A stretch of DNA of 64,000 nucleotides from an uncultured Clostridia bacterium (GTDB taxonomy: Bacteria > Bacillota > Clostridia > TANB77 > CAG-508), in the NCBI GenBank assembly GCA_904378095.1, contig CAJFHE010000001.1, forward strand, positions 12,018-76,017, written 5' to 3'. Positions within the stretch are counted from its first letter, which is position 1, and every line of letters begins with the position of its first letter. The translations under genes were made by a program, and so were the position numbers. The notes below the pieces were generated by a model that was given only the letters and a program-made list of their open reading frames with translations, made no database searches and was not told the DNA's origin. Shown here one piece after another: positions 5,852 to 55,511 of the stretch.

Positions 5852-5906
5852 TATAATTGAAAAACTTGTATATTTGGGACACTCCTTGAGGTAAAAAAAT
5901 GAAAAT

Positions 5907-5989
5907 ATTACAAAATTATTACAGCAATATTAAAAATATGTTACAAATATGCCTATAGGGTTGAAAAAAGCAGTCTGATAGTATAGAAT
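5907..5989 (+). promoter_or_regulatory. promoter of locus A: three (A/G)TTACA boxes, then TTGAAA-17-TAGAAT
   Basis: Boxes at 5907, 5918 and 5940 (offsets 0, +11, +33). -35 at 5961-5966 and -10 at 5984-5989. Homologous to 45722-45804. Confidence 0.55.
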
Positions 5990-20664: not shown

Positions 20665-20759
20665 AATGCTTTATATACAGAAGAAAAGCCAAGTTTGTAT
20701 CTAAAATATTACAATTTGGTATAAGAAAGAATAAAAGTGTGTTAAGGGGGAATTTAAAA

Positions 20760-21517: not shown

Positions 21518-21541
21518 AAAACATATGATTAGTGGAACACT

Positions 21542-21566
21542 GGGGGCAGATTTTTAATCTGTCCCC
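21542..21566. repeat. GGGG(G)CAGA-N7-TCTGTCCCC hairpin (GAC-hairpin family)
   Basis: Inverted repeat read directly, 3' of gmk. Near-identical to 54737-54765, including the CATG flanks. Confidence 0.8.
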
Positions 21567-21811
21567 ATGTTGCACTTGCACACATCAAAAGTATAAATAA
21601 AAATAAAGTTACTAGCTAATGGTTAATAAAAACATATATATCTTTTCATCTGGATTTTTTTCTTTTTTTAATATATAATAAGAAAAGTGGCTTCGCCACA
21701 TGTACATTTCGCTTCGCGAATATGCACGGCCTAAGGAAACTTAACCTTGTTGCTCCGGAAATTTCTAACGAAATTTCCTATGCAATAGAGAAAAATTTTA
21801 GAGGAGAAAAA

Positions 21812-33572: not shown

Positions 33573-33808
33573 TATGTAAATAGAAATAAACAAAATAGGA
33601 TTAAATAAACTTAGAAAAAATATAGAGAATAAAATAATAAAAAGGCTCCCCTGAGAACATCAGCTCTCAGGGGATTATTAAAGGAGGCGCCAATAAGCTC
33701 TCTTGTACTCTGTAAAAAATTAAAACTGAAAAATATCCTCCTATTAGCAAAAAAATGCTATTAACATAATATATTATACACTATTATTTCAAAAAAGTCC
33801 AGTATTTT

Positions 33809-33839
33809 CTTGTTTTTTTCCTCCGTCCCCAAAAACAAG
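33809..33839 (-). repeat. 31-nt palindromic element R31, copy 2
   Basis: cttgtttttttcctccgtccccaaaaacaag, an exact reverse complement of copy 3. Abuts the stop of the 33840..34442 gene. Confidence 0.95.
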
Positions 33840-34442
33840 TTACATTAAAAAATATTTTATGCATGATAAAACTGTATCTGTAACAAAAACTGCAAAGAGA
33901 ACATACACACTAATCACTTGAATCCTATATGGTATTTTAGAAAGCACTATATTTATTTTCTTTTTGAAGAACGGATAAATAAAATTAACAAATAGGATTG
34001 CAATTATACCCCATGCAAAGCTATAAAAAATACTTACACGACCATTTAAATTCATAAATTCACTTGTATAATCCCACCATTTTAAAGAAAATAATGCTTC
34101 CATTCCATAACTTACAACATACTCAAAAACAGTAAATAAAATTGCTGCATACACGAATAATTTTAAATTATGCTTTTTATATGTGCTAAAGAATATGATT
34201 AGCATTAACGCTCCCCAGCCATAAATTGGACAAAGTGGACCAAAAAGAAATCCTCTTTTAGTAAAATGCCCTAAAGAATAGAAACTAAAACAAGTTTCTA
34301 AAAGCCATCCAACAAATGAGAATATTAAAAAATATATAAAATACAAGTATATTCTTGGAAGTTTCTTTTTTTGCGGTTTATCTTCAGCAACCGTTACTCC
34401 ATTATTTGTATTATTAATGCTCTGCTCCATATCAAAATACAC
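33840..34442 (-). CDS. polytopic membrane protein, PF06541/DUF1113-like ('ABC-transporter type IV' family)
   Basis: GW..E....RGFLFGP..PIYG.G and WWDY....NLNGR patterns. Bracketed by inverted R31 copies. Confidence 0.6.
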   Translation of the reverse strand: MYFDMEQSINNTNNGVTVAEDKPQKKKLPRIYLYFIYFLIFSFVGWLLETCFSFYSLGHFTKRGFLFGPLCPIYGWGALMLIIFFSTYKKHNLKLFVYAAILFTVFEYVVSYGMEALFSLKWWDYTSEFMNLNGRVSIFYSFAWGIIAILFVNFIYPFFKKKINIVLSKIPYRIQVISVYVLFAVFVTDTVLSCIKYFLM

Positions 34443-34529
34443 CCTTTCATAAAATTACAGTATATATAATAGCAGAAACAAAGCAAAAAGTAAATTGAAT
34501 TAAGAAAAGTTTAAGTAATGAATAGAAAA

Positions 34530-34560
34530 CTTGTTTTTGGGGACGGAGGAAAAAAACAAG
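34530..34560 (+). repeat. 31-nt palindromic element R31, copy 3 (archetype)
   Basis: CTTGTTTTT-GGGGACGGAGGAA-AAAAACAAG: 9-bp stem and 13-nt loop. Confidence 0.95.
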
Positions 34561-34628
34561 TTTTTTTCATTTGTAATTTTTGCAAATATATAGTATAATA
34601 GATATGCTAAAAAAGAGGTGACAAATAA

Positions 34629-44466: not shown

Positions 44467-45408
44467 ATGGAAAAGGAAGTTTTAATTTTTGGACATAAGA
44501 ATCCAGATACAGATTCTATTACATCTTCAATGGTAATGGAGAACTTGGAGAGAGAATTAGGTAATAAAAATGCAAAAGCAGTTAGAACAGGTGATGTTAA
44601 TAAAGAAACACAGTTCGTTTTAAATTATCTTGATATGGAAGCTCCAGAGCTAATTGGAAATATTAATGATAATCAAGAGGTTATATTAGTAGACCATAAC
44701 GATGCTGCACAATCAGCAGATAATATAGAGCATGCAAAGGTTTTAAAAGTAATAGACCACCATGCTGTAAACTTTACAATTTCAAGCCCTTTATACTATA
44801 GAGCAGAGCCAGTTGGATGTACAGCAACTGTATTGTATGAATTATATAATGAAAAAAGAATAGAAATAACTAATAAAATTGCAACTCTAATGCTTAGCGC
44901 TATTGCTTCTGATACATTGGTATTAAAATCACCAACAACAACAGAAGTTGATAAAAATGCTGTTAGAATGTTAGAGAAAATAGCAGGATTAGACCTTACT
45001 AAATATGGTGTAGATATGTTAAAAGCAGGAACAGACATAAGCGATTTTACACCAGAGCAAGTAATAAATATAGATTCAAAATTATTTGAGCAATCAAATA
45101 AAAAATTCAGAATAGCACAAGTAAACACAGCTGACCTAGACTCTATATTTAAAAATCAATCATATTTCGAGCAAGCAATAAATAACGATATACAAAAAGA
45201 AAACTTAGACTTTTATGTATTTGCTGCAACAGATATAATCAATTCAAATTCAAAAATTATATCACTTGGAAATGATGCACCAGTTGTAGAAAAAGCATTT
45301 GGCGTATCTGTAGATAATCATACAGCAATGCTTGAAAATGTAGTGTCAAGAAAAAAACAAATGCTACCACCAATTTTGGATGCATTGAACAATAATATAA
45401 ATTTATAA
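44467..45408 (+). CDS. ppaC: manganese-dependent inorganic pyrophosphatase (family II, DHH)
   Basis: FGH.NPDTDSI, VDHH and DHHA2-type C-terminus. TTGACT ... TGcTATAAT promoter upstream. Confidence 0.9.
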   Translation: MEKEVLIFGHKNPDTDSITSSMVMENLERELGNKNAKAVRTGDVNKETQFVLNYLDMEAPELIGNINDNQEVILVDHNDAAQSADNIEHAKVLKVIDHHAVNFTISSPLYYRAEPVGCTATVLYELYNEKRIEITNKIATLMLSAIASDTLVLKSPTTTEVDKNAVRMLEKIAGLDLTKYGVDMLKAGTDISDFTPEQVINIDSKLFEQSNKKFRIAQVNTADLDSIFKNQSYFEQAINNDIQKENLDFYVFAATDIINSNSKIISLGNDAPVVEKAFGVSVDNHTAMLENVVSRKKQMLPPILDALNNNINL

Positions 45409-45409
45409 T

Positions 45410-45440
45410 CTTGTTTTTGGGGACGGAGGAAAAAAACAAG
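45410..45440 (+). repeat. 31-nt palindromic element R31, copy 4
   Basis: Exact copy starting 2 nt after the ppaC stop. Confidence 0.95.
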
Positions 45441-45492
45441 ATTCACAATAACGCAGAAAATATAAAACAAATTTAAATATTTTAATAATTTA

Positions 45493-45646: not shown

Positions 45647-45721
45647 ATGGAAAAACAACTATAAATAGCTTGTATCTGAGAATACAGGCTGTTTTTATGC
45701 TCATGTGAGTGACAAACGAAT

Positions 45722-45804
45722 ATTACAAAAATGTTACAGAAATATTAAAAGAATATTACAAATGAGCTAAAAGGATTGAAAATAATATACTAAAAGGATA
45801 TAAT
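45722..45804 (+). promoter_or_regulatory. promoter of locus B: three (A/G)TTACA boxes, then TTGAAA-17-TATAAT
   Basis: Boxes at 45722, 45733 and 45755 (0, +11, +33). -35 at 45776-45781 and -10 at 45799-45804. Same architecture as locus A. Confidence 0.6.
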
Positions 45805-49436: not shown

Positions 49437-49522
49437 ATTTCTATCTTTTAAAATTATACACTTTTTTTATTAAGTTATTCAAGTGTCAAGCTAAAATTTG
49501 TAAATTCTTGATTGTTAATAAA

Positions 49523-49553
49523 CTTGTTTTTTTCCTCCGTCCCCAAAAACAAG
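49523..49553 (-). repeat. 31-nt palindromic element R31, copy 5
   Basis: Exact copy in a divergent intergenic region. Confidence 0.95.
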
Positions 49554-49648
49554 TTTATAAAAAATATTTATAATTTTTCTTGATTTATTGTTATACAAAT
49601 GATAAAATATTTAAGTAAAAGTGGAAATTAAGGAGGAAGTACTAAAAA

Positions 49649-54727: not shown

Positions 54728-54736
54728 AGAGTGAAA

Positions 54737-54765
54737 CATGGGGACAGATTAAATCTGTCCTCATG
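54737..54765. repeat. CATGGGGACAGATT-A-AATCTGTCCTCATG hairpin (GAC-hairpin family)
   Basis: Read directly. Followed by a partial duplication of GTTTTTGGAGACG and R31 copy 6. Confidence 0.85.
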
Positions 54766-54778
54766 TTTTTGGAGACGT

Positions 54779-54809
54779 CTTGTTTTTGGAGACGGAGGAA
54801 AAAAACAAG
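54779..54809 (+). repeat. 31-nt palindromic element R31, copy 6 (one substitution, GGAGAC)
   Basis: cttgtttttggagacggaggaaaaaaacaag. Confidence 0.9.
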
Positions 54810-55390: not shown

Positions 55391-55435
55391 TTTGAAATAT
55401 ATTTTAACTTAATTAGTGAAATACTGGGGACAGAC

Positions 55436-55458
55436 TTACATCTGTCCCTGAATTTCAC
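55436..55458. repeat. GGGGACAGA-N6-TCTGTCCC hairpin (GAC-hairpin family)
   Basis: Read directly, 3' of the membrane-protein gene. Confidence 0.85.
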
Positions 55459-55511
55459 AAGGCGAGAAAATTATTACATATTTTAGTTTAAAATAGTAAA
55501 GGAGGTAAAGA

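Follow-up and report, generated by a model that had tools for sequence, protein, structure and literature searches.

R31, a 31-nucleotide palindromic repeat dispersed among gene ends in uncultured gut Clostridium species

A palindromic sequence of 31 nucleotides recurs, almost without change, along a 64-kb stretch of the genome of an uncultured Clostridia bacterium, and raises the question of what it is, how it came to lie where it does and whether it acts on the genes beside it. The initial annotation of this DNA, the whole length of which we call the window, had taken the repeat, R31, for a dispersed REP/MITE-like element, a view that empty orthologous sites in close relatives support. We consider it probable that R31 represents a new REP-like family of very short, non-autonomous palindromic insertions, specific to a few related uncultured gut Clostridium species. 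Nearly all surviving copies lie at gene 3′ ends, between cistrons or in other places where they disrupt nothing.

Copies in the window and in related genomes

The R31 core is the 31-mer CTTGTTTTTGGGGACGGAGGAAAAAAACAAG. It has six matches in the window, five with no mismatches and one with a G12A change, exactly as first counted, and none in 100 dinucleotide-preserving shuffles of the window; the chance expectation is none. Scored at every window position, the mismatch spectrum is bimodal, with six sites at 0–1 mismatches and the next at 11, which is the level of shuffled sequence, so that the window holds no decayed copies. The G+C content of the window is 30.7%, and the core, read directly from the sequence, is open in all six reading frames. 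The copies are as follows.

1195–1233 (core 1199–1229), minus strand: R31 copy with AAAT/ATTT flanks, inside the 3′ end of spoVAD, 0 mismatches
33809–33839, minus strand: R31 copy 0 nt past the stop of the PF06541 gene (33840–34442, minus strand), sense, 0 mismatches
34526–34564 (core 34530–34560), plus strand: R31 copy of the AAAA/TTTT flavour, divergent intergenic, 0 mismatches
45406–45444 (core 45410–45440), plus strand: R31 copy 1 nt past the stop of ppaC (DHH/DHHA2), sense, 0 mismatches
49519–49557 (core 49523–49553), minus strand: R31 copy, divergent intergenic, 0 mismatches
54762–54778, plus strand: partial 17-nt copy of the left part of R31, CATGTTTTTGGAGACGT, from strain-contig comparison
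54779–54813, plus strand: R31 copy with G12A, 51 nt past the DUF1292 stop

Four of the six had been placed at or within a few nucleotides of a stop codon. This holds for the 33809 copy (0 nt) and the ppaC copy (1 nt), and not for the other two: the spoVAD copy lies inside the ORF, and the DUF1292 copy lies 51 nt away, behind a separate hairpin. The 1199 copy belongs to the spoVAC-spoVAD-spoVAE operon, and the spoVAD ORF translates through it to end in LVFGDGGKKQDFGNK*; the Pfam SpoVAD model stops at residue 339, the exact point at which R31 starts. The remaining two copies do lie upstream of promoters in divergent regions, as described. The 34530 copy sits between two promoter-like sites, with the -35 element of a SpoU-methylase gene 10 nt downstream, and is followed by seven T; the 49523 copy sits upstream of the promoter of a Na/Ca-exchanger gene, in the orientation of that gene. 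Flanked as they are by divergent promoter-like sites, both are probably untranscribed.

The 33809 copy has a promoter-like site 7 nt downstream. This site (-35 at 33801, -10 at 33773) opens a minus-strand segment, 33640–33805, in which a strong terminator-like hairpin (33674–33647) follows ~100 nt later. No ORF of at least 60 aa lies between the promoter-like site and the hairpin, so the segment may encode a small RNA or a short peptide.

The 54779 copy lies directly behind a terminator-like hairpin, at 54733–54770, which belongs to a second palindromic repeat family of ~44 nt (approximate consensus GTGAAACAYGGGGACAGATTTAAATCTGTCCCCRTGTTTCAC) found at gene 3′ ends. Further copies of this family occur at ~21531–21575 and 55415–55460 in the window and at L016:2738 and L040:4741. 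The predicted fold of the 54733–54770 copy, a 17-bp stem with UUUUU after it, resembles a classical terminator. This copy is abutted by R31, and its stem has GGGGAC in common with the R31 loop. The partial R31 copy at 54762–54778 occurs in the window strain and in L091 only. It is missing from eight other strain contigs, in which the upstream hairpin leads directly to R31 at the 54779 site, and three of these eight are also short of one A of an A-run.

Two further features of the window are recorded here as observations in their own right. Tandem AATATTACAAA-type boxes occur at 5902–5989 and 45717–45804 (also at 20703 and 49171), two intergenic regions being 76% identical over 86 nt, and one of them follows a tRNA-Leu and precedes a gene of unknown function; by sequence the boxes look like binding-site arrays or a shared regulatory region. 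Between 38881 and 44369, the annotation of locus L005 gives a weak cohesin match, a sortase, an SH3/Big_2/dockerin protein and a cadherin-like protein, a cluster whose gene content suggests a cell-surface, cellulosome-like assembly in a gut Clostridium.

The window PpaC protein is encoded on many gut-metagenome contigs with identical gene order, and the 45410 copy was found in all ten strain contigs examined. Four window copies are present on every strain contig that covers them. At these four sites, no presence/absence polymorphism was seen among ~10 strains, and there is thus no sign of very recent movement. One strain alone carries a ParE/PhdYeFM toxin-antitoxin pair (L010:1713–2346), in a segment 88–90% identical to the other strains as against ~98% elsewhere.

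The window and loci L001–L069 together hold 78 copies, 70 of them non-orthologous, and the latter figure is a lower bound (at least 70). The consensus is matched exactly by 56 of the 70 and with one or two differences by the others, the commonest variants being G10A, G12A and G31C, with three copies each. The density is ~1 copy per 10 kb, with a maximum of two copies per locus and otherwise kilobases between copies, in both orientations. A CRISPR array, with its regular direct repeats and spacers of ~30–40 nt, is rejected on these grounds, in line with the initial annotation.

How far does the family extend? An exact-pattern scan of one genome per species across 185,579 species gave four single matches, all in low-G+C MAGs, labelled uncultured Clostridia, Clostridium sp., Bacilli and Ca. 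Avacholeplasma. With a slightly degenerate pattern, 55 further metagenome loci were found, mostly in assembly UMIY01, which also contains the window's loci. L002 and L049, the latter a UMIY01 contig, are 96% identical, and the Bacilli and Ca. Avacholeplasma matches (L002 and L004, both short contigs) are therefore probably binning errors, not cross-phylum spread. The G+C content of nearly all R31 loci is 26–33%, with L045 at 36%. R31 is confined to a narrow lineage of uncultured gut Clostridium species with ~30% G+C.

Within this lineage, R31 is found in at least three other related species, at sites that differ. The identical 31-mer is found at non-orthologous sites in species whose flanking DNA has ~76–85% nucleotide identity (L025, L081), and L003/L021/L050 and L052 carry copies at sites without an alignable counterpart in the window species. 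Independent assemblies contain R31, including some with long-read-style contig names (L006 'tig', L081 'ctg'), and an assembly artefact is rejected. Contig names of this style are present in the ENA assemblies ERZ21563600, ERZ21549409 and ERZ21564551. The repeat had not been recognised as a described element, and the searches agree. Rfam holds no R31 family, the window passing its gathering threshold only with two tRNAs, and a permissive Rfam scan around the 45410 copy gave nothing credible at E<=10. There were no matches in viral contigs, in plasmid records or in a literature search on the R31 sequence itself. We know of no REP-comparable family described in Clostridia, and searches for one found none.

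Fold, flanks and placement relative to genes

As RNA or single-stranded DNA, R31 is predicted to form the hairpin proposed at the outset, a 9-bp stem with a 13-nt loop, which the flanks lengthen to 12–13 bp. The loop is G-rich (GGGGACGGAGGAA), with a GGAGG Shine-Dalgarno-like core and three GGA motifs. Single copies have predicted energies of -7.7 to -11.2 kcal/mol (-9.1 to -11.2 kcal/mol for the stem lengthened by the flanks), stabler than most shuffles, and a stem with two G-C pairs. The left flank has the consensus AAAW and the right flank, the better conserved of the two, WTTT(T), which brings the total to ~39 nt. Both flank flavours that had been noticed in the window are real and general, with AAAT/ATTT in 23 and AAAA/TTTT in 9 of the 70 copies. 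Flank complementarity reaches at least 4 nt in half of them (35/70), and pairing beyond 4 nt is, by estimate, ~1.6–2 times the composition expectation. Since the flanks are complementary and not direct repeats, none of the 70 copies shows a target-site duplication. The 5′ end of the core is CTTG, with no GTAG-type tetranucleotide. Across the 70 copies, single stems show no compensatory variation, and no covariation is available.

Some copies are part of larger palindromes. Around five of the 70 form inverted pairs (L017, L043:6789, L049:12575, L016 and L056), ~90% of copies being singles; in the first three of these pairs, the second copy is partial, inverted and fused to the first. The L038 copy is placed in the loop of a longer pre-existing hairpin. 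In a related species, L081:11770–11850 holds a full inverted doublet with a 9-nt spacer, followed by TTTTT, in which the outermost C-G pair has become G-C through changes on either side, with pairing kept. Inverted doublets are predicted at -46 to -48 kcal/mol (z -9 to -15). They have the structure of intrinsic terminators, whereas single copies do not, and the modelled folds make it credible that doublets would act as strong terminators.

To extend this to the whole family, and to regard R31 as bidirectional intrinsic terminators copied around the genome, seems to us very unlikely. The consensus arrangement of A-tract, palindrome and T-tract, AAAW...WTTT(T), speaks for it, together with the stability of the doublets, the UUUUU after the L081 doublet and some convergent genes only 42–43 nt apart, whose spacer is entirely R31 and contains no other structure (L043:721, L048:4406). 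However, an intrinsic terminator has a G+C-rich stem, a 3–8-nt loop, an immediate U-tract and a position at the end of a transcription unit, whereas single R31 copies have two G-C pairs, a 13-nt loop and ~-9 kcal/mol. Copies lie inside the operons spoVAD-spoVAE, sufC-sufBD and nrnA-truB, and some stand upstream of promoters or, at 54779, behind a proper terminator. A scan could not show R31 replacing canonical terminators, because these are themselves rare at gene ends of every kind in the R31 loci (31/460). The single hairpin is thus too weak, too A/U-rich and too often intra-operonic for a normal terminator, as the initial annotation had concluded. Its reason, the absence of a U-tract, is only partly true, given the right flank consensus and the seven T after the 34530 copy.

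The placement of the 70 copies was determined against gene calls from a codon-usage model trained on the long ORFs of the R31 loci.

Tandem gene pair, G-rich strand sense: 27 copies of 70
Tandem gene pair, antisense: 10 copies of 70
Convergent gene pair: 16 copies of 70
Divergent gene pair: 4 copies of 70
Deep inside an ORF: 5 copies of 70
One side of the copy unassigned: 8 copies of 70

The sense to antisense ratio in tandem pairs (27:10; binomial p=0.008) bears out the co-direction with genes that had been suggested from six copies. Of the 70 copies, 65 avoid ORF bodies, and nine of these 65 share sequence with the 3′ end of an ORF. A sense gene precedes 46 copies: R31 begins 0–5 nt past its stop in 19 of them and 9–15 nt past it in 5; in a further nine the ORF reads through R31 and terminates 5–20 nt beyond, with a C-terminal tail of the type LVFGDGGKKQ... 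or (D/N)LFLGTEEKNK. Half of the non-overlapping tandem-sense copies fall within the first 10% of the free intergenic space (KS p=0.001 against uniform placement), and antisense copies do not cluster in this way. In convergent pairs the nearer stop is that of the sense gene in 12 of 16, as counted from the context table. Intra-operon copies occur in spoVAC-spoVAD-spoVAE (window), sufC-sufBD (L037) and nrnA-truB (L035). R31 orientation tracks the neighbouring gene rather than the majority strand of the locus, a weak trend with two informative replication-strand cases. The genes bracketed by inverted copies are ordinary: coaE (L030) and the PF06541 membrane protein (window).

The sense bias and the tight proximity to stop codons are not predicted by a purely selfish DNA element, and the bias, taken with the Shine-Dalgarno-like, GGA-rich loop, makes a role at the RNA level possible. 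One could go further and see in R31 first and foremost an RNA module with a function, for which it is selected at gene ends; its loop would capture ribosomes or 30S subunits, or else a protein that binds RNA, such as CsrA, with an effect on termination, recycling, re-initiation or mRNA decay, and with spread as a secondary matter. Such a module would fit the bias, the stop-codon proximity and, weakly, the way in which orientation follows the neighbouring gene; it would also fit the identity of the 31-mer across species whose flanks have diverged, the bimodal mismatch spectrum without decayed copies, and the tolerance of copies in the spoVA, suf and nrnA-truB operons. Nonetheless we think it unlikely. 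About a quarter of the copies in tandem contexts are antisense, the 34530 and 49523 copies lie upstream of divergent promoters where no transcript is expected, some copies are inside ORFs, and the single-copy stem, which offers no covariation, has never varied compensatorily. By known ribosome geometry, moreover, the GGAGG, ~19 nt past the stop, would be too far downstream for the anti-Shine-Dalgarno sequence of a terminating ribosome. The antisense, promoter-upstream and in-ORF copies indicate that many R31 copies are simply tolerated insertions.

A REP-like insertion would still have consequences where it is transcribed. A single copy would place a weak A/U hairpin at an mRNA 3′ end or between cistrons. 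E. coli REPs protect upstream mRNA from 3′ exonucleases and interfere with termination when inside the stop-codon ribosome footprint; by analogy, the R31 hairpin could serve as a 3′ exonuclease barrier or as a modulator of termination at a nearby stop codon.

Insertion sites and the route of spread

Evidence that R31 is an insertion comes from empty orthologous sites in close relatives at sufC-sufBD and gmk-priA. The sufC and sufBD genes abut or overlap in L087, L088 and L084, whose SufC is 92–95% identical to that of species A, its tail entering the sufBD ribosome-binding site. Species A (L037) has ~68 additional nt between the two genes; these hold the R31 core in their middle, with a new TAG stop 5 nt before it. 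Species D (L081), ~86% identical to A in nucleotide sequence over sufC-sufBD, has the core within the 3′ end of sufC, 26 nt further upstream than in A, where it is translated (…CHKINLVFGDGGKKQDLNIKERSN*). The net gain of DNA at sufC is ~+68 nt in L037 and ~+27 nt in L081; by this comparison, the L081 copy could be either a second insertion or the product of deletions on both sides of a shared one. A search for a donor of the extra 30 nt at the sufC insertion found none. At the second site, L081 is syntenic with 15.6–22.7 kb of the window and its gmk-priA spacer contains the inverted R31 doublet, whereas the orthologous window spacer (21518–21721) is without R31 and holds a different terminator-like palindrome instead.

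Deletions adjoin the L081 sufC copy. In addition, comparison of L049:744–780 with L002:176–400 places a 192-nt deletion in L049 directly after an R31 copy, with loss of a hairpin, of a promoter-like region and of the beginning of the following gene; the deletion may be genuine, or the assembly may have collapsed at this point. Gains of DNA, deletions beside copies and rearrangements that extend the palindrome make up the pattern expected of an insertional hairpin repeat. Several observations count against REP-like insertion: at sufC, the gain in L037 exceeds the conserved 39 nt, and the length-neutral copies in the genes for a GH94 glycoside phosphorylase and AddA need an accompanying deletion. 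The lack of a target-site duplication, of strain polymorphism at four window sites and of a mobilising enzyme in the DNA searched also speaks against it.

These two are examples of copies deep inside ORFs. In the GH94 gene (L065), 20 homologues are identical in length at the site, and the R31-encoded DLFLGTEEKNK stands where these have unrelated sequence such as DLYLPSDVCES. The GH94 gene of L070, at ~80% nucleotide identity to that of L065, has the same R31 copy with four arm changes, and the more distant one of L074 is without it; the 26-nt identical run between L065 and L070 is unexceptional for this gene. In AddA (L034), R31 occupies a length-variable linker, no insertion-sized gap is seen against homologues, and the copy in another strain has two substitutions. 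Because adjacent deletions occur at other R31 sites, the most economical reading of such copies would be that R31 inserted and that flanking codons were then lost in frame, protein length being under selection; a route resembling conversion may be an alternative.

Conversion rather than insertion would indeed explain length-neutral copies in ORFs, and leads to the idea of an uptake-signal-like or otherwise drive-maintained motif, of the USS/DUS or cyanobacterial HIP1 type, upheld by biased recombination or conversion. The equal length of the GH94 and AddA copies and their homologues' unrelated sequence agrees with this, as do inverted pairs at gene ends and a sequence common to related species. 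We find it highly improbable all the same, as DNA was gained at sufC in both L037 and L081, and a perfect 31-nt motif without intermediates at 2–10 mismatches is the opposite of a mutation-drive equilibrium; nor is the L065/L070 identity exceptional. Uptake signals occur at ~1 per kb and R31 at just ~1 per 10 kb, and with the bimodal spectrum and the sufC gain, this class is rejected.

A mixed reading, which we judge quite unlikely, makes R31 a portable gene-end module, sense-oriented, near stops and with its Shine-Dalgarno-like, GGA-rich loop, and/or has it spread without a dedicated transposase. As a module, R31 would be more than selfish DNA and would be selected because its loop engages post-termination ribosomes or an RNA-binding protein and so sets the fate of the upstream mRNA. 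Without such a transposase, R31 would spread through template switching driven by its hairpin or through patch conversion; this would account for the length-neutral ORF copies, the palindromic flanks and the adjacent deletions.

For R31 as a REP-like insertion, an enzyme acting in trans would be needed, and the initial annotation had proposed looking for a co-occurring RAYT-like or other recombinase gene; the search for a RAYT gave no support. With E. coli RayT, a distant query, phmmer found nothing below E=1 in ~650 kb centred on the copies, an estimated one-fifth of a genome, and the same ~650 kb contained no ORF with an HUH...Y(I/V)xx(Q/N) motif. The usual arrangement is a RAYT flanked by its own repeats (PMC5581495), so that such a gene should have been captured in these copy-centred sequences. 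A tblastn search of plasmids with E. coli RayT yielded no usable Firmicutes query. Half-element matches, as expected of an insertion sequence with R31-like ends, were absent outside full copies in the loci examined, which amount to an incomplete genome; the IS256 and IS21 genes of L081 are unrelated to R31. We suggest that R31 would move as a DNA hairpin by means of a trans-acting enzyme encoded elsewhere in the genome, and that recent or continuing amplification from a conserved master would keep the copies identical, decayed ones being removed.

Likeness to known repeats and significance

REP-type repeats are well studied in Proteobacteria, where the domesticated transposase RAYT, of the Y1 HUH type, maintains them. 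Enterobacterial and Stenotrophomonas REPs carry a conserved 5′ GTAG-type tetranucleotide, and Liang, Rudd and Deutscher (2015) are said to have placed REPs often very close to stop codons. Measured against the published definitions of REPs and REPINs (PMC5581495, PMC3337134), R31 shares a short palindromic unit (20–40 nt), near-identical copies that number tens to hundreds in a genome, sites at operon ends and between cistrons that are extragenic yet mostly transcribed, both orientations with occasional inverted doublets, no target-site duplication and a consensus common to related species. It is short, over-represented and mostly extragenic, as a REP should be. It differs in an A/T-rich stem with a 13-nt G-rich loop, where the REP stem is G+C-rich, in lacking the 5′ tetranucleotide, in its marked sense-strand bias and in having no RAYT near any copy within the ~650 kb. 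With ~90% singles, R31 also departs from the inverted doublet that is the replicating unit of a REPIN. Pseudomonas, Escherichia and Haemophilus exemplify the RAYT groups studied in PMC5581495, whereas the host of R31 is a Clostridium lineage. R31 works like a REP; the features that define a REPIN-RAYT system are absent or not demonstrable, given the singles, the want of GTAG and the fruitless RAYT search.

Other families resemble R31 in part. Bacterial MITEs (Correia/NEMIS, RUP, BOX, ERIC) are likewise non-autonomous and dispersed, with inverted-repeat ends, gene-end insertion, co-transcription and lineage-specific gains. They measure at least 100 nt, and R31 is three- to five-fold shorter; its arms are inverted, but target-site duplications are lacking and the loci examined yielded no parent IS with matching ends, so that it is not a classical MITE. 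Rickettsia palindromic elements also lie in frame inside genes and are translated, as R31 is in AddA (L034), GH94 (L065) and nine C-terminal tails. They are ~100–150 nt long and add a peptide segment, whereas the in-ORF R31 copies add no length relative to homologues and are a small minority. Neisseria DUS and Haemophilus USS share with R31 an identical short motif at gene ends, some hairpin-forming inverted pairs and length-neutral ORF copies; R31 is much longer, roughly ten-fold rarer, without graded near-matches and inserted at some sites.

The signature of R31 is unusually clean: a perfectly conserved 31-mer, adjacency to stop codons, a sense bias and no RAYT in sight. For the gut Clostridium lineage that carries it, R31 is a specific marker. 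It probably also causes contigs to break and to be mis-binned, and the single copies in MAGs labelled Bacilli and Ca. Avacholeplasma would be instances of this. If the loop does have an RNA function, the family would provide a natural experiment on 3′-UTR hairpins beside stop codons in Firmicutes. If R31 is moved by a new mobilising enzyme or by a transposase-free route, it would widen the known ways in which short repeats persist in bacteria.
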